Virus record (IMG/VR): IMGVR_UViG_3300043388_000007
Coordinates: 4,034 to 68,033 of that record
Length of the DNA stretch: 64,000 nt
Reading direction: 5' to 3' (one strand)
DNA from: a virus
Taxonomy: Duplodnaviria; Caudoviricetes
Under the pieces are notes generated by a model. It was not told the origin of the DNA, did no database searches, and was given only the letters and a program-made list of their open reading frames with translations. Below, one piece after another: positions 10,164 to 63,686 of this stretch (position 1 is the stretch's first letter; each line of letters opens with the position of its first letter). A program made the position numbers and the translations under genes.

Positions 10164-11030
10164 TCACACCGACTGGAGAGCCTCCACGATCCGCCTCATC
10201 ACCATGTCAGCGGCAACTGCCGCCACGGCCTCGACGCTGATCTGCACGCCGCCGATGGAGAGACCAGACCCCGAGTCGCTGGAGATGTCGGCGGCAATGG
10301 AAGGGGTGACTTCGGCCTCCGGTGTCTCCGGTGCCGCCTCACCCAAGATGTGGTCGATGTAGGTCTTGGGGCGGGTCCGGGGAGGCAGTGTGATACCCAG
10401 GTTTGCCGCCACCTCCTTCAACTCCCCGAGGTCCATCTCTTCGAGTTCCTCACGGCTGGGCACCTCGGCGGCGGTCTCCTTGGCCGGAGCAGCGGCGGCC
10501 TTCTTGGCGCCTACCTTCTTCGCCGGAGCCTTGGAGGGCTTGGGCGGCTCCTCCGGCTCCGGCTCCTCCGGCTCCCCACCGGAGAGTTCGATCTCCACCA
10601 TGCCGTCGTTGAGCACGAAGCCCTTGAACCCTGCGTCGTTGGCGGCCTGCACCGTGGTGTTGAGCCAGCGGTCTTCCTCGGCCTCGGAGTCGTCCGACAC
10701 GTAGAGCGCCAACACGTCGGCGTCCTCGCCTTCCTCCGGGCTGTTGTTGAGCAGGTTCACGACCTTGCGGGCCAACTGCTTGGCCACGTGGGTGTTCTGC
10801 GACTGCGTGTAGATGTCGGCCATGGCGTCGGCATCGTCGGTCAGGACCTCGTAGTAGATCTCGTTGGTGTGGAGGAACTTGACGATGTTCTTGTCGGTGG
10901 CGGTCGGCTCCGACTTGCCCTGGACGACGAACCAGAAGGCCTCCTCCCCGGCTTGCTCCCACAGATCCTTGAGGGTTTCGGAGAGTTCCTTCTGGGTCAT
11001 CTCCCCGTCACCCAGTACAACATGCATCAC
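10164..11030 (-). CDS. Acidic protein with a Rho-N/SAP-like helical DNA-binding motif
   Basis: PSREELEEMDLGELKEVAANLGI motif after a Pro/Lys/Ala linker. Confidence 0.7.
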   Translation of the reverse strand: MMHVVLGDGEMTQKELSETLKDLWEQAGEEAFWFVVQGKSEPTATDKNIVKFLHTNEIYYEVLTDDADAMADIYTQSQNTHVAKQLARKVVNLLNNSPEEGEDADVLALYVSDDSEAEEDRWLNTTVQAANDAGFKGFVLNDGMVEIELSGGEPEEPEPEEPPKPSKAPAKKVGAKKAAAAPAKETAAEVPSREELEEMDLGELKEVAANLGITLPPRTRPKTYIDHILGEAAPETPEAEVTPSIAADISSDSGSGLSIGGVQISVEAVAAVAADMVMRRIVEALQSV

Positions 11031-11041
11031 GACACGTACTC

Positions 11042-11305
11042 CTATCTGCTGTTTCTCTGCTGGCGAAGGACGGCCAACCTAGTCCAGTCGGTTGATACCA
11101 ACAAGAGATCGTTGACCTTCATCAGCATCACTGCCAGACCCCCGAGGCCGAACCCCAGCCACCAGCGATGGTAGTCGATGAGACACTGACCGCCGACGCC
11201 AAGCACCAGCGGGAGCAGGAGCCAGAACAGCCGGTTGGCCTCGAAGTACTCAGCGAGGATGCTCCAGAGTGCCCAGACGCCGAGGGCAACGAGGAAGTAG
11301 ACCAT
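11042..11305 (-). CDS. Small membrane protein (possible holin)
   Basis: 2-3 TM helices and a basic C-terminus, at the end of the tail operon. Confidence 0.6.
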   Translation of the reverse strand: MVYFLVALGVWALWSILAEYFEANRLFWLLLPLVLGVGGQCLIDYHRWWLGFGLGGLAVMLMKVNDLLLVSTDWTRLAVLRQQRNSR

Positions 11306-11314
11306 CCCCGGACT

Positions 11315-12694
11315 CTAGGGCCAGGGGTTGATCACCCCGTCGAGGTCAGCGAGCACGTCCACCCGATACGGCAGTACGCCAGCGGGCTTGGGCGGCACCG
11401 AGGCCATGATGTCGTTGGGGTGGAGCACGTCGATGTGGGCCACGACGAACGTGCCAGCCGGGACCCAGCGGTACACGAACCCCTGAGCGGCCATCACCTC
11501 GTCGGTGATCAACGTGTCGTCGCTGATGTCCCTGGAGAACAGGCGGCCGTAGAGCGCCCGCTTGTTGTTATACCAGAAGGAGTACGACGCTCCCCGGTTG
11601 GCGCTGCCGCCATACCAGGAGTAGTCGTCACGGGCGCCGTAGGTGCTGTCGCCGTCGAAGTAGGCCCACTCCCGGAGGTAGCCCTTCTCGCAGAGCACGT
11701 TGTCGATTGTGATATCACCACCATCGCACTCGATGCGCACCATGCCCTGAAATGTCTGGACCGGGTTGCGGCAGGCGGCGATGTGGATGAAGCCATCGGG
11801 CTGGAGCGTCCAGGTCTCGGTGCCCCAGTCCACCGACGTTTCCTCGAAGGCATCGTCCCACCACACGAAGCCGACCTTGACCTGTCCCGTCCCCTTGGCC
11901 AGGAACTGCACCGTCCAGAACTCCTCCCGGTAGGTGGGGAAGGTGTTGGACTCAGCGACCACCGTGCCGCCGCCGACGAACTGACCGGCCCACGCTCCCT
12001 GGTTCGGCACCGGGTTGGTGACACCCACCCTGGTGATCGCACCGTTGGTGGACCAGTAGTCGGTGCCCGGCTTCTCGAAGCTCGGGTTGGCCACCATGTT
12101 GGCCCGCTGCGGGTAGAGCCACACATGCTGAGTATGTGAAGGCTCGAAGGTTGGCGCCCCGACGTAGAGCACCAGCGGCCCCTCGACCAGTGACGTGATG
12201 GTGGTGCTCCCGCTGGGAGCGTCGGCCCAGGAGAGCATCCACTTCTTCGAGGCCCCGACGATGCTCTGGTCATCAACGGCGGTGATGCCGTCACCGTCAC
12301 TCACCACCTGGGTCACCCCGAACGGGGTGTCGGTGATGAGAATGATCGGATCGGTGACACCACCGAGGGTGCCGACGTACTGCACCGCCGCCGCTGCCAC
12401 CTCGGCCTGGCCCATACCGGTGAACGGGAACTGCGTGAACATCACGTAGTGGTTGAGGCCCACATCGAGGACGCCCACCGAGAGAGTGCCAGCCAGCGGG
12501 TAGCCGGTGGCGCTGGCCTCCAGCCAGCCGGAGGTCGCCAGAAGACTCGCTTTGGTTGTGATACCTGTGTATCGACTGTCTCCGTTGCTGAAGGTCGGCG
12601 CCTGCCTGAAGAGCACCAGCTTCAGGGTGGCGGTGTCCATGATCGTGGGGTCGTCCGACAACTCGGTGCGGAACAGGTCGGTGAAGACGTTCAT
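11315..12694 (-). CDS. Tail/baseplate protein with carbohydrate-binding-like domain
   Basis: NMVANPSFEKPGTDYWST (CBM4/9-like) ... DNVLCEKG..EWAYFDGD. Confidence 0.75.
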   Translation of the reverse strand: MNVFTDLFRTELSDDPTIMDTATLKLVLFRQAPTFSNGDSRYTGITTKASLLATSGWLEASATGYPLAGTLSVGVLDVGLNHYVMFTQFPFTGMGQAEVAAAAVQYVGTLGGVTDPIILITDTPFGVTQVVSDGDGITAVDDQSIVGASKKWMLSWADAPSGSTTITSLVEGPLVLYVGAPTFEPSHTQHVWLYPQRANMVANPSFEKPGTDYWSTNGAITRVGVTNPVPNQGAWAGQFVGGGTVVAESNTFPTYREEFWTVQFLAKGTGQVKVGFVWWDDAFEETSVDWGTETWTLQPDGFIHIAACRNPVQTFQGMVRIECDGGDITIDNVLCEKGYLREWAYFDGDSTYGARDDYSWYGGSANRGASYSFWYNNKRALYGRLFSRDISDDTLITDEVMAAQGFVYRWVPAGTFVVAHIDVLHPNDIMASVPPKPAGVLPYRVDVLADLDGVINPWP

Positions 12695-29078: not shown

Positions 29079-29584
29079 ACTAGGCTCCCTGGCTCGAAGT
29101 CGAAGAGTTGGTCGTCACTCGGGTACGTCTCGATACCGGTGATGCCGACGATCACGTCTTCACCCTTGGCCCGGCCACGGATCTGGAAGGCGCTGACCTC
29201 GTAGTAGCGGTTGTCGTAGTAGAAGACATCGTTGACCCGCTCGTATCTCCACACCAGAGAAGGCGAGCCATCGGTGAGACGGTTGCCGTGGACCTCGGTG
29301 ACGGAGATGCCCGCTTCGTGAAGCTGCTTGGCCGATACGGCCAGGCGGATGCGCTGAGTGGGACGACGACCCTCGGCGGCGTAGTCCTCGGTGGCCTCGC
29401 TCTGGTCCACCCACAGGATGGGGATGCGCAGACCCGACTCGTAACGCCGGTATGCCTCGTCGTACACATCGTCGTAGTTCGACGCCGAGGCATCGAACTT
29501 GAAGTAGATGATGGCCTCACCGATGTCGGTCTGGTAGCGCTCGAAGTGCTTCCAGATCTCTCGGACCTCACGACGTGGGTCCAT
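29075..29584 (-). CDS. Head-tail adaptor/closure-like protein
   Basis: YDDVYDE, DVFYYDNRYYEV; position. Confidence 0.65.
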   Translation of the reverse strand: MDPRREVREIWKHFERYQTDIGEAIIYFKFDASASNYDDVYDEAYRRYESGLRIPILWVDQSEATEDYAAEGRRPTQRIRLAVSAKQLHEAGISVTEVHGNRLTDGSPSLVWRYERVNDVFYYDNRYYEVSAFQIRGRAKGEDVIVGITGIETYPSDDQLFDFEPGSLV

Positions 29585-30237
29585 CAGAGGAAGCTTCCGT
29601 TGACCGGGCCAGGTGTGGAGGACTTGCCGTACTTCTTCTGCCGAGCAGCCATTGCGTTGGAGGACTCGATGTGACGCTCCACGCCCTTGGCCTCGATGAC
29701 GTGTGATACCGGCATCACCGGCAGCAACTGGTCTGGGTTGAGGTTTGCCATCACCGCCAGCCGGTGGTGACCGCCAGCGACGTTGGGCTTGCCAGTACGG
29801 CCTTGCGTCTCGGTGGCCAGGGAGATGGGCATGGTCACGCCCTTCTCCTTGATCGACTTGGTGAGGCCGGAAACGTTGGACTCACCGAGCTTGCGGTGGT
29901 ACATCTGCTCGTCGGTCTCGGGAGCAGCCCGCTCACGGATGGGCCGGAAGCCTCGGTAGTAAGGCTTGGCCTCCCCACCTCTTCGCACGTCTGCCGCCTG
30001 GCGCTCCCCGTAGTTGACCTCGTTCTTCACATCATCGGTACGACTGGTACGCCAAGTGGCCTGACCCTCACGTGGGTCCAGACCCACCTCACGGAACACG
30101 CCACCGGAGGCCCGGCTCACGCTGTAGCTGGTGCCGTGGTACATGCGGTCCGGCTCGTTGGGATCGTGGGTGGCCATGATCTCCCGAGCGCTCATGAAGA
30201 GCTTGCCCTGGAGCGGGTTCTCGGTGGGCTTCTTCAT
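29584..30237 (-). CDS. ParB/Sulfiredoxin-like domain protein
   Basis: LTKSIKEKGVTMPI...VAGGHHRLAV; N-terminal QGKLFMSARE. Confidence 0.75.
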   Translation of the reverse strand: MKKPTENPLQGKLFMSAREIMATHDPNEPDRMYHGTSYSVSRASGGVFREVGLDPREGQATWRTSRTDDVKNEVNYGERQAADVRRGGEAKPYYRGFRPIRERAAPETDEQMYHRKLGESNVSGLTKSIKEKGVTMPISLATETQGRTGKPNVAGGHHRLAVMANLNPDQLLPVMPVSHVIEAKGVERHIESSNAMAARQKKYGKSSTPGPVNGSFL

Positions 30238-31097
30238 GCAGGCCACCCACCGCTACCACTGGTGCCGAGCGAGTTCCACGCCAGTTCTCGGGTGGACTGC
30301 GCCCGCCACATGTCGTATGGCGTCAGGTCCTCGGTGACCTCGATCACGTCGGGGTCATCGGTACCACCGATGCCCTCCATCGTGCCGTCCGGGATCGGCG
30401 GCGTCAGACGCTTGGGCCAACGGGGGTCATCGATCTCCCGCTCCTTGTACACCGGCACGTAGCGGTTGGTGAGATACGCCACCCGGCGCAGGCGGAACTG
30501 CTCCAGTTGATCGAGACCGATGTTGAGCGACTGCGCCCGCTTGGAGTACTCGCCCTCCCAGTACTGCATCATCTGGATGACCTGGGAGAAGCGCTGCCGA
30601 GCCGGGATGTACATGCCCTCCGGCGTGGATACGTCGATATCCAGCGACAGTTCGAGGGCCAGCGACCAGAGCGCCCTGACGACCGCTCCCATCGCTGTCA
30701 CTTCGGTGTACACACCGGAGATGTTCGAGGCGTTGCCGGTGGTGTTGTAGAGCACCTCTTCGGCCGCCTGGTTGGCGTGCATGATCAGGTCCTCGTCAGC
30801 GAACCAGGTGTAGTAGTACGCCGAGATGAGCAGCCGGGTGTTGAGCAGGGTCTCGTCGGTGAGCTTGAGCAGCCCGTTGCGGGAGTCGAGGGTCCAGGCG
30901 GTGGTGGCCGTGGAGACCATCGGATCGTCAACCGTCGCCCCCGGCACAGCCGAGAACACCTGCACCGAGGGCGGCGAGATGAGAGGGTGCGGCAGGCGCA
31001 CCGTCAGGACGTTGAGCGGCCCGACCTCGATCTCGAAGAACTTTGGGAAGTCCCGCAGGAAGGCCCGAGCGTTCCCGGCAATCTCCATGACGCCCAT
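30234..31097 (-). CDS. Neck/head-tail connector protein
   Basis: DIDVSTPEGMYIPARQRF motif; position. Confidence 0.7.
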   Translation of the reverse strand: MGVMEIAGNARAFLRDFPKFFEIEVGPLNVLTVRLPHPLISPPSVQVFSAVPGATVDDPMVSTATTAWTLDSRNGLLKLTDETLLNTRLLISAYYYTWFADEDLIMHANQAAEEVLYNTTGNASNISGVYTEVTAMGAVVRALWSLALELSLDIDVSTPEGMYIPARQRFSQVIQMMQYWEGEYSKRAQSLNIGLDQLEQFRLRRVAYLTNRYVPVYKEREIDDPRWPKRLTPPIPDGTMEGIGGTDDPDVIEVTEDLTPYDMWRAQSTRELAWNSLGTSGSGGWPA

Positions 31098-48770: not shown

Positions 48771-50393
48771 TCAGCCTCGGCGGAAGAACGGCGAGTCCAT
48801 GACCTCTACGACCGGTGCCGTCTCGGCCATAGAGCACACACACGCCAGCGCCAGAGAGTCCACATAATCATCGTGCGCCTCCCGCTCGTTGGGGGCCTCT
48901 ACCAGGAGGTACTGGCCCTTCATGACCTTCTCGGCATCGCTCATCTGCTGGCGGAAGTTACGCCAGACCCGAGTACGCCGAGCCTTGGAATGGCCGGGGT
49001 AGATGAGCATCCGGCGCTGAATCAACTGGATCAAGTGCTTCCAGCGGTCGCTCTGGTTCTTGGCGTCGCTGGAGTACGGCGTGACCTCGCAACGTGAGCC
49101 GAGCAGACGCTGGAGACGATCGGCCACCGCCGACCCCATGCCCTGGGCATCGACACCGACGAAGGCGATGTCGTAGGGGTCGAGGAACTCCATGATCTGG
49201 AAGTACTGCTCCTCCCAGGCCGTGTTGTGGATCTCCATCCAGTTGAGGATGCGGTGCTCCCGGTAGCCAGCCGGATCGGGGTAGTCCCAGTCCACCCAGC
49301 ACACCGTGACCACGGTGGAGTCCTTCACTCGGGCCGGGTCGATACCGACCACCACCGGGGTGCGGTGCCACGCCTTGACCAGGCCCATCGAGCGGTCGGC
49401 CAGCATGTCCAGGTCGTCCTCGGTGATGAGCATGCCTCGCTCAAGCATCCACTTGAGGGCGTATGACATCTGGAACTCTTCGGAGTCCTCACCGAGGCGG
49501 ATCTTCTCCTTCTCGATGAACTTGCGGTAGGCCGGGTTGTACTTGCTGACGACCTTGTGGTCGTACTCGAAGTGGTTGGAGCGCTTGCCCCGTTGGCGCC
49601 GCTTGTTGAGGTTGATGGCCTTGTAGAAGTCGCCCTTGGTGTAGCCGGGAGTGCCGATCTTCACCATCGTCCCGGCGTTGGCGGCGAGCATCGGGTGGAC
49701 GCTCTTGCGCACCACCATCTCATCGGCTTCCTGGGCCTCATCGATGACGATGATGTGATACGTGGAGCCTTCGATCTTGGCTCGGGGGTTGGCTGTCTGA
49801 CGGCGGCAGAACGACCCGTTGGAGAGTCGTATCACACGGCTCTTGCCTTCCACCTTCTCATCGATCTCGGGGTCCGACAAGATGGCCACCGCCCGCTCAC
49901 TGGAGAGGCGGGTGGCGATGCGGGAGAAGACGAGTTCGGACTGCTCCTCGACCGGAGCGAACAGGCCGACCATGAGGCCTTCCTTGAACTGCTCCATGAT
50001 CGGGTAGGTCTTGGCCAGGATCGGGAAGAGGATCATGCACCCAGCGAGAGTGGTGGCGACGACCTCGCTCTTGCCCGACTGGCGGGCCATCAAGCCGGTG
50101 ATTTCCTCGGCGTCGTTGAGGATCAAGGACTCGACAATCCGGTATGACATCGAGCGCTGGTAGGGCCGAAGCTCCTTGCCCCACAGTTCTTCACAGAACA
50201 GGATCGTCCGCTTGATGAGTTGGTCGAGGAAGTCGGCCATCTCCGGTTCGAGGTCGTCTAGTGCATGATCAGCCTCTTCCTCGGCCTCAGCCTGCGCATC
50301 GGCGGCCTCCAGTGCATCAAACTCGGCCTGCTCGTCCTCGGAGAGGTCGAAGCCCAGGTCCTCGATGATGATGTCGGCCACTGAGAGGACCAT
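48771..50393 (-). CDS. terL: Terminase large subunit
   Basis: LRPYQ, ARQSGKS (Walker A), IIVIDEAQ (Walker B), VGIDPA and HDDYVDS nuclease motifs. Confidence 0.95.
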   Translation of the reverse strand: MVLSVADIIIEDLGFDLSEDEQAEFDALEAADAQAEAEEEADHALDDLEPEMADFLDQLIKRTILFCEELWGKELRPYQRSMSYRIVESLILNDAEEITGLMARQSGKSEVVATTLAGCMILFPILAKTYPIMEQFKEGLMVGLFAPVEEQSELVFSRIATRLSSERAVAILSDPEIDEKVEGKSRVIRLSNGSFCRRQTANPRAKIEGSTYHIIVIDEAQEADEMVVRKSVHPMLAANAGTMVKIGTPGYTKGDFYKAINLNKRRQRGKRSNHFEYDHKVVSKYNPAYRKFIEKEKIRLGEDSEEFQMSYALKWMLERGMLITEDDLDMLADRSMGLVKAWHRTPVVVGIDPARVKDSTVVTVCWVDWDYPDPAGYREHRILNWMEIHNTAWEEQYFQIMEFLDPYDIAFVGVDAQGMGSAVADRLQRLLGSRCEVTPYSSDAKNQSDRWKHLIQLIQRRMLIYPGHSKARRTRVWRNFRQQMSDAEKVMKGQYLLVEAPNEREAHDDYVDSLALACVCSMAETAPVVEVMDSPFFRRG

Positions 50394-51929: not shown

Positions 51930-52229
51930 TCACTCGGTCAGTTCGGTGTTGAGGTCCGGGGTGACGTGGATCTGGAAGATCACGCCGTCCGGTGCCAGAC
52001 CGAAGAGGTCTCCCTTGCCGTCCACTTCCTGGTCCCGCCAGACCACCTTGTCACGGAAGGCCGAGCGGTCTCGCAGGCCGCCGATCAGGCCGATGGCGTC
52101 AAGAGAGGTGGAAGCGGTGTGATGCCGCAGCACCTCCATGTCCTCGGGGTCAGCGCCCTTGCGCAGTTCGATGGTGTATTCGTGGTACACGGGCCACTCC
52201 AGTGGTAGTTCGTCTTGCAGGTTGGTCAT
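51930..52229 (-). CDS. Hypothetical protein
   Basis: 99-aa ORF; N-terminal QDELPL. Confidence 0.6.
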   Translation of the reverse strand: MTNLQDELPLEWPVYHEYTIELRKGADPEDMEVLRHHTASTSLDAIGLIGGLRDRSAFRDKVVWRDQEVDGKGDLFGLAPDGVIFQIHVTPDLNTELTE

Positions 52230-53005: not shown

Positions 53006-53347
53006 TCAGTAGTTGAGGCGGCCGTGCTTCACCGGCACGTAGCTGTCGGGGTTGTGGTCGTAGGCAGCGGTGGTGCGATGGTGCCCATTGGCGAGCCTGG
53101 TGCCGTCGTTCTCACTGTGCACGATCAGGACTGGCTCTTGCACGCCGTGGGCGGCCACGTCCTTGTCGAGGCCTTCCCGCTTGTTCTCACGGCGCTTCAC
53201 CTTCCACATGGCGTCCTTGGACTTCCAGGCCCCGCCCATACGGTCATTGGGGAACCGCTGAACGTCGATCGAGTTCATGCCGTGCAGTTCTCGGGCCGTC
53301 ATGAACATGGCGAGTTGCTGCGGGTGGAGATGGTCTGAGGCAGCCAT
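53006..53347 (-). CDS. ParB/Sulfiredoxin-like domain protein
   Basis: LDKDVAAHGVQEPV...LANGHHRTTAA; N-terminal QQLAMFMTARE. Confidence 0.78.
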   Translation of the reverse strand: MAASDHLHPQQLAMFMTARELHGMNSIDVQRFPNDRMGGAWKSKDAMWKVKRRENKREGLDKDVAAHGVQEPVLIVHSENDGTRLANGHHRTTAAYDHNPDSYVPVKHGRLNY

Positions 53348-54448: not shown

Positions 54449-54636
54449 TCGGGTGGGATCTCCGGGTTGTAGTGGCGCTGCTCTTCGCCCTCGACGTAGT
54501 GATAGTCGGCCCTGATGAGTCGATCGCCCTCGATGATGGTGCGGCAGGTGAAGCTGTAGCCGTTGGGGCCGACTGCGGCTCCCCAGCGTCCACCCCGACG
54601 AAGCTCCACCGGCTTGCCGCAGTCAGCGCAGTTCAC
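54445..54636 (-). CDS. Small zinc-ribbon-like protein
   Basis: CADCGKP...C...H; GTG overlapping the upstream stop. Confidence 0.55.
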   Translation of the reverse strand: MNCADCGKPVELRRGGRWGAAVGPNGYSFTCRTIIEGDRLIRADYHYVEGEEQRHYNPEIPPE

Positions 54637-55763: not shown

Positions 55764-56021
55764 TCAGGACTCATGGCGACCTCGATCAGGCTCGGCTGGT
55801 GTCTCACCGAGAGCAGAGAGCGTCAGTGGGTCCACCCAGGCGATGCCCATGCCACCGTAGATGGCCGGGTCATCGAACTTCACCTGGACGCAGCGCCACG
55901 GTTGCTCGGGGCCTGGCTCTTGCACCCTGGTCACGGTACCGGTGTGCACGGTCTTGCCGTCCTCGCCGTAGGGGAGGGAGACCTGCACCTTGTCGTCGGG
56001 GAACCACATGGTTACCTCCAT
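55764..56021 (-). CDS. Small SH3/Tudor-like protein
   Basis: GTVTRV...CVQVKFDD. Confidence 0.55.
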   Translation of the reverse strand: MEVTMWFPDDKVQVSLPYGEDGKTVHTGTVTRVQEPGPEQPWRCVQVKFDDPAIYGGMGIAWVDPLTLSALGETPAEPDRGRHES

Positions 56022-56665
56022 TCCGAGTCCTTGAGGATGATCGGCATGAGCAGCACCCGCAGAGTACCTGCCTCGCTCTTCATGGAGAAGTGGTTGACCC
56101 GCTTGCGTTGCAGAGCGTGCACCCGTAGCGGGACCATGGCGCCGTCCTCGTCCACCGGATCGTGCCAGGAGTCGAAGGCGTCGAAGGCGTCGTGGAAGTA
56201 GTCGAGGTTGAACCCGACCTCTTCGTCAGCGACCACTTCGTCGCTGATCAGCCTGTGCATGTCGGGCCAGTTGGGGATTGTGAAGATGTCGGTCTCGGCC
56301 ACGCCGTCGCTCGGATCGCTGGTCTCGACCGTCCACTTGGTGTGGCTGTTGGTGGCCGTGATGACGATCGACTCGTCGCTGTCGTCGTCGGCGTTGTCCA
56401 GCAGGATGCTGTGGGCGAGGAAGTCGGCGCCGATGACGATCTCACCCTCGTCGTACGCATCGACAACAGATCGTTTGATCTGGGCGATGTGAGCACGGAA
56501 GCCGTCCGTGGTCACGAAGGCCACGGTCTTGTCGTCCTCGTCCCACGTGATGTGGATCGTCTCCATGAAGGAGGTGGGCGACTCGTCCAGACAGGACGCC
56601 GCCGCAGGGGTGAGAGCTTCGAGGATCTGTTTCAGCAGCTTGGTCTTGATGGTAAGTGTGGCCAC
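56012..56665 (-). CDS. Truncated two-domain DNA polymerase III beta-clamp-like protein
   Basis: FVTTDGFRAH (cf. ATDGHRL), PNWPDMHRLI, VGFNLDYF, C-terminal RVLLMPI; 217 aa. Confidence 0.78.
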   Translation of the reverse strand: MATLTIKTKLLKQILEALTPAAASCLDESPTSFMETIHITWDEDDKTVAFVTTDGFRAHIAQIKRSVVDAYDEGEIVIGADFLAHSILLDNADDDSDESIVITATNSHTKWTVETSDPSDGVAETDIFTIPNWPDMHRLISDEVVADEEVGFNLDYFHDAFDAFDSWHDPVDEDGAMVPLRVHALQRKRVNHFSMKSEAGTLRVLLMPIILKDSEWR

Positions 56666-56991: not shown

Positions 56992-57123
56992 TCAACTCGC
57001 CGGGTACTGGTCCTTGTCCTTGTCGTTCTTCTCCATGAAGGCGTAGCCGCTGGTGTAGCCGCCCTGGGTGAAGTCGGCAACCCTGCCGAGCGTCTCGATG
57101 CTGGGTGATTCGTAGTCCACCAT
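56992..57123 (-). CDS. 43-aa peptide with lasso/RRE-type RiPP leader (MVDYESPSIETLGRVADFTQ-GGYTSGYAFMEKNDKDKDQYPAS)
   Basis: Not in the ORF track; AGGAGA RBS 7 nt upstream; own promoter and terminator; YxxPxI-xxx-G-xxxxx-T-x-G leader spacing. Confidence 0.72.
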   Translation of the reverse strand: MVDYESPSIETLGRVADFTQGGYTSGYAFMEKNDKDKDQYPAS

Positions 57124-57154
57124 AGTGATGTCTCCTGTTCGGTAGTGGACCATC

Positions 57155-57163
57155 ACTATAGCA
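57155..57163 (-). promoter_or_regulatory. Extended -10 promoter for the RiPP-like peptide
   Basis: TGcTATAGT on the minus strand. Confidence 0.6.
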
Positions 57164-57725: not shown

Positions 57726-57989
57726 CTAGTCCGTTGAGACGACGCTCTTCTCCACCGCTACATCAACGCCGTAGTACTTGACCCATACCGTGGTCAGCAG
57801 CGCCGAGAGCCGGTAGGGCAGGCCAGCGTCGGGGTCGCCCACGTCCTTACAGAAGTGCTGGTGGTCGATCAGGTGACCGATGCCGCCCATGACTTCACGC
57901 AAGGCGCAGGCCTTGTGCATCGGCTGGATCGAGGATGCCGAGTTCTCGTCCTCCATCGGAGTATCACAGAGCACGCAGTTCACTGCCAT
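57726..57989 (-). CDS. Zinc-binding hypothetical protein
   Basis: CVLC...MHKAC..H..HQHFC. Confidence 0.65.
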   Translation of the reverse strand: MAVNCVLCDTPMEDENSASSIQPMHKACALREVMGGIGHLIDHQHFCKDVGDPDAGLPYRLSALLTTVWVKYYGVDVAVEKSVVSTD

Positions 57990-58189
57990 ACCACCCGAGT
58001 GAGGCCACCATGACCATGGACGGCTTCGACCGACTCCATGCCCCGGTCGTGGAACACCACGCTGGTGGGGAACTCGGACAGCCAGCGCAGCGCTACGACG
58101 CCTCCGGTGAACTCGATGCCCTCGGCCACGATGCCGGTCCCGGAGATGCCGGTGACATCTTCGTCACGAACCAGGACGAAGGCCCTCAT
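57980..58189 (-). CDS. Conserved small actinophage-type protein
   Basis: RDEDVTGISGTGIVAEG.EF....ALRW...VHGHGG.T pattern. Confidence 0.75.
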   Translation of the reverse strand: MRAFVLVRDEDVTGISGTGIVAEGIEFTGGVVALRWLSEFPTSVVFHDRGMESVEAVHGHGGLTRVVWQ

Positions 58190-58337: not shown

Positions 58338-59051
58338 TCATAGCGACTCAGGCAGGATGCGGCGGCGCTGTCTCGGCGGCAGCACTGTCGTGGTCGTCGT
58401 GGTCGTGGTCGTCGTGGGCGAGATCGTCGTGCTTGTGGAGGAGGTCGTGGATGAGGTGCTGGTCGTCGTCGTTGAGGACTCGGGGGGCAGTGACGACGTT
58501 GAGGTAGTGCTGACCGAGGTCGTCGTGGTCGAACTGGGGGCCGTAGTCGTGCTCGCCGGGACCGTGCTGGTCGTTGTACTGGTCGATGGCACGGTTGACG
58601 AGGTTGACGAGGTAGTCGAGGTCGTGCTGGTCGTCGTAGATGTGCTCGTAACCGGCACGGTGGAGGTCGTCGTTGGCGGCACGGTGGTCGAAGTGGTCGA
58701 GGTCGATGGCGACGTAGACGATGTGGTGGTGCTGGACGGCGCCGTCGTCGTGGTCGTCCCTGGTACGGAGGTCGTCGTTGAGGTACTCGGGGTGGTGGTG
58801 GTCACCGGCACGCTGGTGGTGGTCGTTGAGGCCACCGTGGTCGTCGTCGCACCCGTCCCCGTAGTAGTGGGCGCCACTGTCGTTGTCGTTGATGACGAAC
58901 CCCCGTCTGTCGTGGTCGTTGTGTAGGCCGGATGCGTCGTTGTGGTGGTCGGGGGCGGGTACCAACCACCAGCATCAGCCACCGTCGCCAGTGTGATAGC
59001 GCCTGCCGTCACCACGGCTGCTGCGACAGCGACCCACCGCTTGATTGCCAT
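58338..59051 (-). CDS. Secreted mucin-like Thr/Ser-rich protein
   Basis: Signal peptide (MAIKRWVAVAAAVV..ADA) then about 190 aa dominated by Thr/Ser/Pro; ggagag RBS. Confidence 0.75.
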   Translation of the reverse strand: MAIKRWVAVAAAVVTAGAITLATVADAGGWYPPPTTTTTHPAYTTTTTDGGSSSTTTTVAPTTTGTGATTTTVASTTTTSVPVTTTTPSTSTTTSVPGTTTTTAPSSTTTSSTSPSTSTTSTTVPPTTTSTVPVTSTSTTTSTTSTTSSTSSTVPSTSTTTSTVPASTTTAPSSTTTTSVSTTSTSSLPPESSTTTTSTSSTTSSTSTTISPTTTTTTTTTTVLPPRQRRRILPESL

Positions 59052-59093: not shown

Positions 59094-59483
59094 TTAGCTC
59101 GCCGTGAGGCCCACGAAGGAGCCGTGTGACGATTGTGTTACAGCCCGGTACTCCTGAGCCATCGTGCGCACTTCACGCATGGTCATCGGCTCATTGATCC
59201 GGTACTGCAACCGGTTGAAGATCTTCCCGTAGAGGTCGTGGCCGCAGCGGTAACACAACGTCCGATTGATGTCAGCGACGAACCAGTTCTCCCTGTACAA
59301 CGAGTAGTTCTCGGTGTAGAAGGCATGGCCAACAATATCACAACAGTTGAACAAGGTGAGTTGGGTCGGGGGGCGGTCCGTCGTCCTGTAGTGGAGGTAG
59401 ACGTTGGGGCTGACATGCATCTCGAAGTCCTCGATCGGTTGAGCCATGAACTTGCTGAACGAGAATTCAAACCCGTCACTCAA
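59094..59483 (-). CDS. Early protein with QLTLF motif and Cys/His cluster
   Basis: PPTQLTLFNCC..H...CYRCGH. Confidence 0.7.
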   Translation of the reverse strand: MSDGFEFSFSKFMAQPIEDFEMHVSPNVYLHYRTTDRPPTQLTLFNCCDIVGHAFYTENYSLYRENWFVADINRTLCYRCGHDLYGKIFNRLQYRINEPMTMREVRTMAQEYRAVTQSSHGSFVGLTAS

Positions 59484-59718
59484 AGCGCACCCACTCAGGC
59501 AGGTGGGTGGTCAGCCGGTGGACGGTGTTATGACACGCCAGTTGGGGACGGATCGTATCGACCTCAGAACGGCTGTAGGGGCCGAGGAAGCAGTCGGCGT
59601 TGTCCTGGAAGGAGATGTAGCAAGCGATGACATACTTGGCGAAGTCCACCGACACGACCGTTGTGGTGTTGTTCTCCAGAGGCACTACCTCTCCTTCCCG
59701 GAGCCAGACCTTCGGCAT
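59476..59718 (-). CDS. Hypothetical protein
   Basis: 80-aa coupled ORF. Confidence 0.55.
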   Translation of the reverse strand: MPKVWLREGEVVPLENNTTTVVSVDFAKYVIACYISFQDNADCFLGPYSRSEVDTIRPQLACHNTVHRLTTHLPEWVRFE

Positions 59719-59791
59719 GCGTCAAGGATACCGAACCTTGTCACTAAGAGACAAGGTGACCCCGTACGCCGGTATCAGCGACATACGCTGG

Positions 59792-60226
59792 TCACAGGCT
59801 TGGTGGTGGTGTGTCACCAGCTTCCGCCGCTGTGCGATCGCTGCCACCAAGCTTGCGCATCTCGTCCCCGAAGACCGGGAACAACGAGGTCGGCGTGGAC
59901 CCACAGAGCACCCTGGCGGTGATGCCGTCGTACATGTAGGACGAGAGGAAGTAGGCGTGACGCCAAGGGCTGAGGGTGTCGGTGTCACGGTCGTACTTGC
60001 GGAACTCGATCTCGTCGCCCTCGTAGCAGTTGGCCACCACCCACTCCGACTCGTTGGCGCCGTAGCACCACTCGAAGAAGTGCATCTGGCCCTGCTGCCG
60101 GTCATAGACAGGGACACCATTGAGCCAGTGCTTGGGCACTACGGTGATCCTGGTGTGGGAGTCCACTTTGGCGAGATCCCTCGGGTAGGTCGTTGGGATG
60201 TTGTAGAGGTGGTAGCTAGCTGGCAC
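59792..60226 (-). CDS. Aromatic-rich early protein
   Basis: 144 aa; QGQMHFF. Confidence 0.65.
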   Translation of the reverse strand: MPASYHLYNIPTTYPRDLAKVDSHTRITVVPKHWLNGVPVYDRQQGQMHFFEWCYGANESEWVVANCYEGDEIEFRKYDRDTDTLSPWRHAYFLSSYMYDGITARVLCGSTPTSLFPVFGDEMRKLGGSDRTAAEAGDTPPPSL

Positions 60227-60485
60227 GACTCTCGGCGTAGTCCAGGGCCGCCCGGACCCGCTTGTCGAACTCCACGCCGCCTGGCTGGTCGAACAGGATG
60301 GTGCCAGTGCCTCTCAACTGCCACTGCACAGCGAACCGTACAGCGGCATCGAGCAGGAGCGGGGCGCAGGGGATCATCTGGCGAGGGTTGTGCTCCAGGA
60401 ACCACTTACGGGTGCTGTGGTATCTCACTATCTCCGAGCCGGAGACCGACTTGGCGTAGACGATTCTTTCAGGATGGGGGATCAT
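60216..60485 (-). CDS. Hypothetical protein
   Basis: ATG estimated at 60485. Confidence 0.6.
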   Translation of the reverse strand: MIPHPERIVYAKSVSGSEIVRYHSTRKWFLEHNPRQMIPCAPLLLDAAVRFAVQWQLRGTGTILFDQPGGVEFDKRVRAALDYAESRAS

Positions 60486-60963
60486 TCGGGTACTCCATGG
60501 TGCCGTCTGGATGCATATGTCGGCTCCATCCTCTCGGCGTATACGACGGACCGAGCATGTAACTTCTGATTGCCGAGTCGTTGCTGTTGAAGCACCAGTG
60601 CTCACCGGCCGTGAACTGGTCCTCTGCGATGACGATGCGCAGCCGCTCACCGATCAGCCTCAGCAGGCACCAGTAGCGGCCGTCGTCCATCTTCTTGGTG
60701 GCGATGTAGCCGTTGGCCTCGGCCTCGAAGCCATCGGGGAAGCGGTACTCCGGGGTCAGGCGCCACTTGTCGAAGCACTCGGTGTGCGAAGAACACGACC
60801 GAAGCTGGTAGAGCTTGTGCTTGATGCGCCATGCCTGGTACTGGCATGGGTAGTACTCGGTGCCGCACCCCTCCTCGGGTAGGTACACACGACCAAAGTC
60901 AGCGGACCTACGTCGGCCGAAGTCGGCCTCAGTGAACATGACCTCCTGCTGATACGCCTCCAT
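60469..60963 (-). CDS. Early protein with N-terminal QEVMF and Cys/His cluster
   Basis: 164 aa. Confidence 0.7.
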   Translation of the reverse strand: MEAYQQEVMFTEADFGRRRSADFGRVYLPEEGCGTEYYPCQYQAWRIKHKLYQLRSCSSHTECFDKWRLTPEYRFPDGFEAEANGYIATKKMDDGRYWCLLRLIGERLRIVIAEDQFTAGEHWCFNSNDSAIRSYMLGPSYTPRGWSRHMHPDGTMEYPNDPPS

Positions 60964-60972
60964 AGACGTATC

Positions 60973-61296
60973 TTACAGCATGTTCGGCCCTTGTCCCTTA
61001 GGGACATTCATCCGTTCGAGGGCACGACGCATTATCTGGCTCGGCCAGGCAGGCCTCGGCTCGTCGGTGACGCAGAGCGGCTCACCGGCTCGTTCGCAGA
61101 CGCCCATCTGATAGCAGATCCCATGCTCGTCGGCCCCTGGCAAACCGTGGTATCGGGCGTAGTACGGACAGGTGCCGAGATCGACCTCATCCTGGCTGCC
61201 CCACTCGTTCGGCTTGAACAGGCTCAACTGGTGCGGCGGCACTACGGGTACCGTGATCAGGAGTTCTTCAGGCTCCCAGTTGAGATACTTAGACAT
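60973..61296 (-). CDS. Early protein with QLSLF motif and Cys cluster
   Basis: PPHQLSLFKP; CPY..CYQMGVC..C. Confidence 0.7.
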   Translation of the reverse strand: MSKYLNWEPEELLITVPVVPPHQLSLFKPNEWGSQDEVDLGTCPYYARYHGLPGADEHGICYQMGVCERAGEPLCVTDEPRPAWPSQIMRRALERMNVPKGQGPNML

Positions 61297-61582
61297 ACGG
61301 GCGCTCACGCACCAGCATCGGCAGCGAGCAGGCCCGGACGAGTGTGCCCTCCAGCCAGTAGTACGAGATGCTGGTCATGTTGTGGTAGAAGGTCTTGGCC
61401 AACGTCTCGACGGCCCACTTCTGGTCGAACAGGACGGTCTCGATCTTCTGGAACCGCTCTTCCTCGGAGTCCTCTCGAACCCTGCCGCCCCAGATCCCGT
61501 AGATCACATCGATCACCTTGGGTATGGTCAGCGTCCCCGGCAGCGGCAGTTGCAGACCGTAGATCTCGGAGTCGCCACTCAC
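61289..61582 (-). CDS. QLPLP-family early protein
   Basis: YGLQLPLPGTLT; GTGA-coupled start. Confidence 0.7.
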   Translation of the reverse strand: MSGDSEIYGLQLPLPGTLTIPKVIDVIYGIWGGRVREDSEEERFQKIETVLFDQKWAVETLAKTFYHNMTSISYYWLEGTLVRACSLPMLVRERPYV

Positions 61583-61899
61583 GAGAGGCCCCACCTCTTC
61601 TTCGTCACGTACATCGGCAGTATCTTACTCTCGACAGTCTTGTCACGCCTGCGGGTGATGAAGCCGTACGTGTCGGTCAGGAAGGCTGTGGACAGAGCGT
61701 CGATCATCAGATCAGGGTCGTTCAGCGTCACGTCCCTGATGTAACGGCGGTTCTTCCCGTCGCTCGGCACGTTCATCACGACCTTGGCGTACTCTTCGGC
61801 CTGCGCTTTGGTGAAGATCGGCAGGGGCAACTGGAGGCCGTGAGTGAGATAGAGCACTGGTTTGCGCTTCTTGGGGTTCGGTCGCCGCCTGTACACCAT
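61579..61899 (-). CDS. QLPLP-family early protein
   Basis: HGLQLPLPIFT. Confidence 0.7.
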   Translation of the reverse strand: MVYRRRPNPKKRKPVLYLTHGLQLPLPIFTKAQAEEYAKVVMNVPSDGKNRRYIRDVTLNDPDLMIDALSTAFLTDTYGFITRRRDKTVESKILPMYVTKKRWGLS

Positions 61900-61915
61900 C
61901 TCAGTCTAGATGTCC

Positions 61916-62125
61916 CTAAGAGACTAGTGCTGTGCCGAACTGCACAGTCTGCGGAATCAACCGGGTGATGAACCACTCCTGCTGCTCGAAAGAGCGGGTC
62001 CAGTCCTGGGCGTCGTATCTCAACTGCGGATACCAGGTGTTCTCGTAGACCTCGGTATGGCGCCACACCAGATACGGCAGGATCGTCTCTTCGGTGAGCA
62101 GACCGGGCAGCGGTAGCTGGATCAC
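61916..62125 (-). CDS. QLPLP-family early protein
   Basis: MIQLPLPGLLT. Confidence 0.7.
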   Translation of the reverse strand: MIQLPLPGLLTEETILPYLVWRHTEVYENTWYPQLRYDAQDWTRSFEQQEWFITRLIPQTVQFGTALVS

Positions 62126-62133
62126 TTGAGACC

Positions 62134-62403
62134 TCAGGACTCTTTCGGCTCAATGAGATACCGCCGCTGACGACGAGAGTCCCACTGGTTGTTAGTGGAC
62201 GAGGGATCGAGCCGAACCTCAGCGACATCGACCACGTTCGTGAGCAGGTAGTCGTGGTCCTCTTCCAGGCGCTTGACGACATTGCCCATGTCGTAGATGC
62301 CGACGCCACGATGAACCCAGCGATAGAAGGGCAGAGCGGTCTCCACCGTGAACACCGGCAGCGGCAACTGCACGCCCTGCCTACCGAGCCAGTTCATGCT
62401 CAC
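62134..62403 (-). CDS. QLPLP-family early protein
   Basis: QGVQLPLPVFT. Confidence 0.7.
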   Translation of the reverse strand: MSMNWLGRQGVQLPLPVFTVETALPFYRWVHRGVGIYDMGNVVKRLEEDHDYLLTNVVDVAEVRLDPSSTNNQWDSRRQRRYLIEPKES

Positions 62404-62711
62404 TTCTTCAAGCCCCAGGCCCGAGCGACATACTCGGACACGTTGCTCTCACGCTCCATGGCCCACCGGATGCAGAACATCGCCTCCAGGTCGTCCACCA
62501 GCACGTCCTGGTGCTTGTGGTAGTAGCCGACCTCACGATCGATCCAAGTCTGATTCTCGGTGCCCAACACTCCTACCAGGTACTTCACCTGCTCCATGGT
62601 CATCAGGCCTGGTATCGGCGTCTGCACGAAGTCAAGGAACTCGTATGATATTGCCGACTCGTATGACACCCGCACCATCTCATGGATACGTCTCGCCTCT
62701 TCACTGATCAC
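62400..62711 (-). CDS. Early protein with degenerate QTPIP motif
   Basis: FVQTPIPGLMT; GTGA-coupled. Confidence 0.65.
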   Translation of the reverse strand: MISEEARRIHEMVRVSYESAISYEFLDFVQTPIPGLMTMEQVKYLVGVLGTENQTWIDREVGYYHKHQDVLVDDLEAMFCIRWAMERESNVSEYVARAWGLKK

Positions 62712-62965
62712 AGCCCGCACGTGTCCTCATGATCGTCACGATCCTCGATCGTGTCACACTTCACACCACACCAGGCGCAGAACAGTTCGGGGTGCTCGAC
62801 AATCAGCGGTGTCATACTCAGCCCCTGAGGGCCGAGACCCTGAGGGCCGAAGATGCGCTCCCGTGCAAGCGCATACTCCCAACTGACCCAACTGTTCTCG
62901 TCGTTCTTCTTGAGGTACTCGTTCTGCGCCACCTCCAGTTGCTTGGGCTTGCGCCTGGGCCACAT
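62708..62965 (-). CDS. C-terminal C2HC zinc-finger family protein 3
   Basis: CAWCGVKCDTIEDRDDHEDTCGL*. Confidence 0.75.
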   Translation of the reverse strand: MWPRRKPKQLEVAQNEYLKKNDENSWVSWEYALARERIFGPQGLGPQGLSMTPLIVEHPELFCAWCGVKCDTIEDRDDHEDTCGL

Positions 62966-63150
62966 CAGAGGCCGCAGTTGTCTTCGTGGTAGTCACGCTG
63001 GGCCACGCTGGAACAGAGCTTGCCGCACCAGGCACACATACGATCGGCTTCCCTGAGCCGCCGTTCGGCCGTCATGTCGCCACTCCTGCCGATCAACGCC
63101 GCCGCACCCCACACCGTGGTGAGCAGCGCCAGCGCCACCTTCACGTTCAC
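62965..63150 (-). CDS. C-terminal C2HC zinc-finger family protein 2 (N-terminal TM)
   Basis: CAWCGKLCSSVAQRDYHEDNCGL*. Confidence 0.72.
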   Translation of the reverse strand: MNVKVALALLTTVWGAAALIGRSGDMTAERRLREADRMCAWCGKLCSSVAQRDYHEDNCGL

Positions 63151-63686
63151 AGCCCGCACACGTCTTCGTGCTCGTCACGGCGCTCCACCGTCTCGCACTC
63201 CTTGCCACACCAGGCACAGGCCAGCAACATCTTGTCGTTCTCCCGCTTCTCCAGGATCGCCTCGGCCAGCAGCTTCTGCAACCACGTCTGGCGGTTGTGC
63301 ATCAGGCTGGCCTCGCCCAGCAGATCCACCCGCCGAGTAGAATACTCCTCCATCGCCATCGCCGTGATCCTGCCGTTCATCGCCGTGATCAGTTCGTCGT
63401 ACCCGTCCAGCATCCGGTTGTAGTGGGCGATCTTGTCCACGCCCTCCGGCGCCAACAGTTCCGCAGGAAGGTCCATAGCCTCAGATCCCCCCATCTCGTG
63501 GAAGCTCCTACCACCCTCACCCTGGCCCATCCCCACGAACGCTCCCTGGAAGAACTTGAAGTCGTTGCGGCTGAGGTCCTTCAACGCCTTGGCCACCATC
63601 TCGGGCAACAGCACCGCCCCGCCGTACTGTTCAGCGAAGAGCACCTGCTTCGCTGCGTCACGCTTCTCCTTGTCCTCCGGCCACAT
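63147..63686 (-). CDS. C-terminal C2HC zinc-finger family protein 1
   Basis: CAWCGKECETVERRDEHEDVCGL*. Confidence 0.78.
   Translation of the reverse strand: MWPEDKEKRDAAKQVLFAEQYGGAVLLPEMVAKALKDLSRNDFKFFQGAFVGMGQGEGGRSFHEMGGSEAMDLPAELLAPEGVDKIAHYNRMLDGYDELITAMNGRITAMAMEEYSTRRVDLLGEASLMHNRQTWLQKLLAEAILEKRENDKMLLACAWCGKECETVERRDEHEDVCGL

Follow-up and report, generated by a model that had tools for sequence, protein, structure and literature searches.

A DnaN homologue lacking domain I and a putative set of clamp-tagged small proteins in uncultured actinobacterial phages

We examine a 64,000-nucleotide stretch of DNA (the window) from an uncultured actinobacterial phage, corresponding to bases 4034-68033 of a 68-kb contig (IMG/VR virus record IMGVR_UViG_3300043388_000007; completeness estimate 58%). 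A minus-strand operon at 59094-62720 encodes a row of small proteins, several of which carry near the N terminus a short peptide, here called a tag, that resembles bacterial sliding-clamp-binding motifs. The tags take two forms: a pentamer, QL[ST]LF, and an Hda-like Q-x-x-L-P-hydrophobic. A gene 2.4 kb downstream of the operon, transcribed in the same direction, encodes a 217-residue protein (the mini-clamp) that is derived from the bacterial clamp DnaN, and two further phages (L090 and L093) also combine a mini-clamp with an array of tagged proteins. A more far-reaching reading, at a probability of roughly one in three, is a clade-crossing accessory module of large actinophages, in which interchangeable, terminally tagged effectors would dock in the cleft of the mini-clamp and the arrays would grow by duplication sparing only the tag, at either terminus, with possible cross-talk to the host replisome.

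Tags of the operon proteins

Every motif named in the original prediction lies where it was placed, on the minus strand (Table 1), and the start assigned to the QLSLF gene, 61296, is supported by orthologues starting at MSKY. In a six-frame translation of the 64 kb, 4/4 QLPLP and 2/2 QL[STDP]LF occurrences fall in operon genes only. The enrichment proposed as a check is present: a crude proteome of the contig holds six QLxL[FP] matches against 0.38 ± 0.59 expected (200 residue shuffles, maximum 3), and five complete relatives hold 0-2 against 0.6-0.85 expected. The motif cluster is not due to chance. Because the four QLPLP copies use different synonymous codons, their repetition is one of protein and not of DNA sequence.

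All tags lie within the first 45 residues. Compared with the canonical clamp-binding definitions, Q-phi-x-[LM]-[FL] and Q-phi-x-[LM]-x-[FL] (PMC11139829), QLSLF and QLTLF are exact, QLPLPI and QLPLPV fit save for the Ile or Val at position 6, and QLPLPG, QTPIPG, and QEVMF fall outside. Chance alone yields 3-4 matches per proteome to looser patterns such as Qxx[LM]F (2.6 expected in one count), so QEVMF alone carries little weight.

The tags are kept while their flanks vary, and may switch terminus, as in the arrays described below. A 53%-identical homologue has QLQLW in place of QLSLF; its N-terminal flanks cannot be aligned, and its Cys-rich C-terminal domain is conserved. QLTLF is kept in L074, a syntenic 15.9-kb contig, though both flanks diverge. 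Likewise, Q[EQ]V[ML]F survives in the rewritten N terminus of orthologues of the 60469 protein (proteins are named by their left coordinate). QLPLP is retained in most orthologues, with one QLPLS, changed at the tolerant fifth position, and QTPIPG corresponds to QPPLIG. The tag of the 62134 protein is invariant in all orthologues covering it, as is that of the 61579 protein, which resembles Hda QLSLPL, in 4 homologues of 74-84% identity. An AlphaFold2 model of the 61289 protein, weak overall (mean predicted local distance difference test score, pLDDT, 52), has residues 1-25 as coil (pLDDT <50) followed by four helices. Terminal position, coil in this one low-confidence model, and retention amid diverging flanks support the view that the motifs behave as short linear motifs.

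Three other candidates were rejected as tags. QGQMHF of the 59792 protein, previously listed as a weak variant, is part of a uniformly conserved interior stretch. The 55764 gene directly follows the mini-clamp gene in most carriers; the QVSLPY of its product reads TVSLPY in L093, and the family also occurs without a mini-clamp. QLHLP at 54556 and 53437 lies in frames unlikely to be coding.

The remainder of each protein had been described as unrelated to the others, which is true at the detection limit. We searched for full-length paralogy of the QLPLP proteins by pairwise and profile comparison, did not find it, and reject it: in hhalign comparisons of orthologue profiles, the five QLPLP-type families align only over 7-22 N-terminal residues (four pairs at 59-82% probability), with a common module h-Q-L-P-L-P-(G)-h-h-T followed by an amphipathic stretch or helix start. 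Past the motif, pairwise similarity is significant for the 62134 and 61916 proteins only (z = 4.1). These two are partial paralogues (hhalign probability 75%), and the N-terminal module of the 62400 protein also aligns to the 61916 family (hhalign probability 59%). Judged by these alignments, the QLPLP genes fit the picture of tandem relatives keeping an N-terminal module of about 20 residues better than that of four independent inventions. Three neighbouring upstream genes likewise have only a C-terminal Cys/His tail in common.

The array region is hypervariable, since tblastn with all array proteins found no homologues in about 45 related loci (five complete and about 40 partial relatives). 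A five-sequence QLPLP profile found no match in the five complete relatives, IMG/VR scans with single proteins or the mini-clamp alignment gave none, and of two metagenome scans the first returned nothing and the second only two short contigs, none adding a new source. Closer kin, namely L074 and shorter contigs, came from database searches; a search for homologues of the 61916 protein returned a single near-identical match, and comparison of the array proteins with PHROG, Pfam, NCBIfam, and PADLOC gave nothing usable. Array content shifts on a short timescale, because an orthologue of the 61289 gene is found in some but not other near-identical contigs (L078 and L080 versus L079, L081, and L082). 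Past the window's right end, L074 (1005-1340) encodes a DUF7717 protein beginning M-S-A-QLPLS, with a DUF6011 protein and a 573-aa Helicase_C protein downstream; on the strength of these genes, the tagged set probably continues beyond the contig end.

Table 1. Coordinates in the window of the tagged operon, the mini-clamp, and other genes discussed
Feature	Position	Strand	Remarks
106-aa protein	62400..62720	-	Variant tag VQTPIPGLMT; QTPIP at 62610-62624; orthologue VQPPLIGLMT
89-aa protein	62134..62403 (likely start 62397)	-	VQLPLPVFT near N terminus; QLPLP at 62356-62370
69-aa protein	61916..62125	-	Starts M-I-QLPLPGLLT; QLPLP at 62105-62119; QLPLSG in one orthologue
106-aa protein	61579..61899	-	Basic N terminus, then LQLPLPIFT; QLPLP at 61819-61833
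101-aa protein	61289..61594	-	LQLPLPGTLT; QLPLP at 61538-61552; gene missing from two related contigs
~107-aa protein	60973..61296 (or 61308)	-	Variable N terminus with QLSLF (61216-61230), then conserved Cys-rich domain
164-aa protein	60469..60963	-	N-terminal QEVMF at 60934-60948; orthologues QQVLF
Conserved 89-aa gene	60216..60485	-	No tag; overlooked in the original prediction
144-aa (or shorter) protein	59792..60226	-	Contains QGQMHF, unsupported as a tag
80-aa protein	59476..59718	-	No tag
129-aa protein	59094..59483	-	QLTLF (59349-59363), residues 41-45, immediately before Cys/His-rich part
217-aa mini-clamp	56012..56665	-	Homologue of DnaN domains II+III; peptide-cleft residues kept
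99-aa lineage-wide core protein	51930..52229	-	N-terminal Q-x-x-L-x-L-E-[WFY], here QDELPLEW
Large terminase (TerL)	48771-50393		47% identical to Streptomyces myophages BRock and LuckySocke

The mini-clamp and its association with tagged arrays

The clamp-like character noted for the 217-residue protein is borne out by its fold and its cleft. An AlphaFold2 model (14 homologues in the alignment) reaches a pLDDT of 88, its top Foldseek matches are PCNA and beta clamps, and VIA-align gives Z 14-16 over 170-185 residues. In the structural alignments of best identity (14-18%), model residues 1-211 lie on residues 125-366 of Escherichia coli beta, and the protein is therefore DnaN without domain I. 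Among sequence profiles, TIGR00663 matches with E 1.6e-6 over DnaN 126-190 (domain II), at 27 bits and so under its cut-off of 138, and Pfam DNA_pol3_beta_2 at 14 bits, under its cut-off of 27; a mini-clamp profile searched against DnaN chains in the PDB gives E 2e-4, with positions 5-105 on domain II and 142-167 on a domain III helix. A canonical DnaN has three domains per chain and assembles into a head-to-tail dimer ring; the mini-clamp has two domains, aligning to DnaN II and III, and is not a canonical DnaN.

In E. coli the peptide pocket comprises T172, G174, R176, N320, Y323, M362, and P363, all in domains II and III (PMC11139829). The mini-clamp aligns TDGFR to ATDGHRL (T172-R176), GFNxxY to N320/Y323, and a C-terminal LMP to M362-P363; H175 is replaced by Phe, and L177 is variable. 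The protein is acidic (isoelectric point 4.4), and its family is rare, with 15 representatives among 1.84 billion proteins. Its structural neighbours in BFVD include short actinophage proteins named "DNA polymerase III sliding clamp".

In L090 and L093, the mini-clamp homologue is about 30% identical and the array lies 2-5 kb upstream of it. Seven consecutive small genes of L090 encode proteins ending in QPKLPF, QMRLPF, QMELPW, QPEFSW, QMRFPW, QPKLPF, and QPMLPF, and four genes of L093 have QPQLPF, QLRLPL, QPPLPF, and QPPLPL. These proteins differ from those of the window, several are zinc-ribbon-like, and their tags are C-terminal (Q-x-x-L-P-[F/W/L]). Neither mini-clamp nor tagged arrays occur in the five complete relatives, and carriers and non-carriers interleave by TerL identity (G001 86%, L090 84.5%, G002 79%, L093 77%). 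Genes beside the mini-clamp (the Acb5-like gene and the 55764 family) also occur without arrays. Because the arrays track the mini-clamp, we favour the phage's own cleft as partner.

What the tags may bind

The operon would encode small, fast-diverging proteins, each keeping a terminal short linear motif of the clamp-binding class; this motif would seat the variable remainder (Cys-rich or helical) in the peptide-binding cleft of a clamp of the DnaN type. The mini-clamp would be the main platform, a private "tool-belt", and the host beta clamp may accept the same tags. The tags are probably ligands of either clamp, the phage's or the host's. That they dock in a DnaN-type cleft with the mini-clamp among the partners is a more tentative proposal, somewhat short of even odds: the phage clamp had been suggested as a docking target, and this suggestion has gained weight from co-occurrence in three lineages. 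The original idea of a modular clamp-targeted set keeps its core, in that the cluster is not a chance one and the motifs resemble short linear motifs, but the QLPLP genes are tandem relatives and QLPLPG is off the canonical hexamer. Binding, ring formation by the mini-clamp, and the role of the docked proteins are what we infer here. A complex prediction for Streptomyces coelicolor DnaN with the 61579 protein scored 0.00, with an uncertain partner fold and without controls, and speaks neither for nor against binding.

Several observations weigh against the proposed module. The mini-clamp and the arrays are always 2-5 kb apart and may have been inherited together as one recombining block, and the comparison of three carrier lineages with five non-carriers gives a Fisher p of about 0.02 with phylogeny ignored. 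The inner helices of the mini-clamp are acidic in this phage, so that a DNA-encircling ring is uncertain. QLPLPG, in the 61916 and 61289 genes, departs from the canonical definitions at positions 5 (Pro) and 6 (Gly), and the stretch conserved past the tag, h-h-T and a helix, exceeds a motif of 5-6 residues; moreover, the QLPLP orthologue sets are only 73-95% identical, which makes their conservation little informative. Finally, relatives without a mini-clamp also have tagged proteins (the core 51930 family, and others with QLSLF or QLRLDL ends).

The alternative that survives best, though we find it doubtful, is that a tandemly duplicated small-protein family has kept the QLPLP-(G)-h-h-T module at its end, where it either binds a non-clamp partner (e.g., RNA polymerase or an adaptor of a protease) or plays a structural part, its clamp likeness being superficial. 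The module length of about 20 residues and the Pro-Gly of two members would suit such a signature, and the three neighbouring genes that share only a Cys-x2-Cys...His-x3-Cys tail suggest that retention of one terminus is a regional habit. It fits poorly, however, with the canonical pentamers on unrelated genes of the same operon, and the Q-x-x-L-P core recurs in L090 and L093 at the opposite terminus of different proteins, as a portable docking motif typically would; the two prolines also speak against a buried strand or helix.

An unlikely possibility, the first of the two options in the original prediction, is that the tags dock only on the host DnaN cleft, blocking replication or riding loaded clamps, with a separate role for the mini-clamp, which might serve as a decoy for host proteins that bind the clamp. 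QLSLF and QLTLF match the canonical motif exactly, and the family A polymerase encoded by this phage lineage, in which no Pol III alpha was found, need not use a clamp. Tagged proteins also occur in relatives without a detectable clamp gene, which suggests the host clamp for at least some tags. In the lineage as a whole, the motif of the core 51930 family is present in 17/19 orthologues (one orthologue without it ends in QPTLF), the genes at this position in G004 and G005 begin with QLSLPL and QLTLF, and QLSLF, QLRLDL, or QEALF forms the C terminus of some larger proteins of relatives. Phage Mu offers a parallel, its MuC and Mor binding the host clamp through an N-terminal Qx[DE][LM]F (PMC12867686). 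Targeting of the host alone leaves unexplained, however, why the arrays occur only in phages with a mini-clamp.

We consider it very improbable that the terminal peptide targets the proteins to the prohead or signals protease cleavage, as in T4 internal proteins. Small, diverse proteins do have a terminal peptide in common, and the packaging genes lie downstream of the operon on its own strand; but the tag stands 3 to 41 residues from the N terminus behind variable leaders and is C-terminal in L090 and L093, it resembles no known targeting sequence, and this reading gives no account of the mini-clamp link. Chance plus shared ancestry without common function is scarcely credible, since the commonness of loose patterns and the loss of Gln from QVSLPY in L093 are outweighed by six strict matches in one operon, conserved islands, and parallel arrays elsewhere.

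In actinobacteria, the clamp cleft is targeted by the antibiotic griselimycin. Should the tags bind, the site of action would be the first property open to test for a dozen ORFan phage proteins; the mini-clamp would become a natural minimal cleft module for the study of clamp-peptide recognition in actinobacteria; and the system would illustrate phage effector diversification around a single docking peptide. If the host clamp is targeted instead, the array would provide natural clamp-binding peptides and perhaps inhibitors of replication.

Genomic surroundings and known systems

The window has a G+C content of about 63%, and its minus strand holds nearly all genes. Its TerL shares 68-86% identity with those of about 40 uncultured relatives, among which several genomes of 107-118 kb are complete; no near-identical DNA was found among cultured phages. 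In L093, the large terminase (10809-12329) is split across three open reading frames (ORFs), by frameshifts or assembly errors. The tagged operon belongs to a dense minus-strand run of small genes and is located 9-12 kb upstream of the terminase; the majority of junctions in this run overlap or are <20 bases apart. A scan for promoters and terminators gave no more sites than shuffled sequence and no minus-strand terminator.

The three genes upstream of the operon (63147-63686, 62965-63159, and 62708-62965) encode otherwise dissimilar proteins with a common C-terminal tail, C-A-W-C-G-x-x-C...R-D-x-H-E-D-x-C-G-L-stop, which resembles a Cys2-His-Cys zinc knuckle; L074 has the same trio, and several relatives have single copies. 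Between the operon and the mini-clamp gene, all on the minus strand, are a 237-aa low-complexity protein that is rich in Thr, Ser, and Pro and has a hydrophobic segment at the N terminus (58338-59051; L074 has other genes there), a 69-aa phrog_7499 protein (57980-58189), and a 54-aa ORF (56992-57156; L074 6432-6590). The 69-aa protein has orthologues with a precomputed Pfam Acb5 match in L074, L083, L090, and L093, and in L090, L093, and the contig carrying P0017 the Acb5-like gene immediately precedes the mini-clamp gene. Residues 15-33 of the 54-aa ORF match the lasso-leader pattern Y-x-x-P-x-I-x3-G-x5-T-x-G; NCBIfam lasso_leader_L3 scores 13 bits, under its cut-off of 19, and no lasso maturation genes were seen nearby. 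Elsewhere, two minus-strand ParB-like proteins (53006-53347 and 29584-30246), with paralogues in G001, G002, G003, and G004, have an N-terminal H-P-x-Q-L-x-M-F-M-T-A, so that a QLxMF resembling a clamp motif is embedded in a conserved block of greater length; a G003 member has QQRLPF at its start as well.

Among the closest known parallels is phage T4, whose gp45 is a two-domain clamp with partners (the polymerase gp43, gp33, gp55, and others) that bear short terminal clamp-binding peptides. Both cases pair a phage-encoded two-domain clamp with several terminally tagged phage proteins, some of them small. Unlike gp45, the mini-clamp comes from bacterial DnaN II+III and is not of the gp45/PCNA lineage by sequence; the tags found with it belong to the bacterial Q-L-x-L type, its putative partners are tandem ORFan arrays, and no clamp loader or clamp-dependent polymerase was identified. 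The original prediction knew of no described system of this form; gp45 with the tails of gp33, gp55, and gp43 is such a precedent, as are MuC and Mor of phage Mu (PMC12867686, which also mentions gp45 and its tailed partners).

MuC and Mor are small activators with an N-terminal clamp-binding motif, and their overexpression is toxic through clamp binding (PMC12867686). The array proteins are likewise small phage proteins with a putative N-terminal clamp-binding motif, and they differ in standing many in a row beside the phage's own cleft; comparison by sequence and with Pfam, PHROG, and NCBIfam gave no match to Mor/C. Among cellular proteins, the Hda peptide PAQLSLPLYL binds the clamp with a dissociation constant of 0.38 uM (PMC11139829), mycobacterial ImuB has QLPLWG (PMC10421592), and Mycobacterium tuberculosis PolI has QLSLLDD (10.64898/2026.09.19.751633). 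The tags resemble Hda and ImuB in their Q-L-x-L-P-hydrophobic or Q-L-P-L-x-G form and in their N-terminal position, disordered in Hda; QLPLPI and QLPLPV differ from Hda only at positions 3 and 6, whereas QLPLPG has no aromatic residue or Leu at position 5 and no hydrophobic one at position 6. Finally, the short sliding clamps of actinophages (for example, Rhodococcus phage REQ2, 266 aa; Gordonia phage Horus, 238 aa), compared by structure only, have the same two-domain beta-clamp fold as the mini-clamp.

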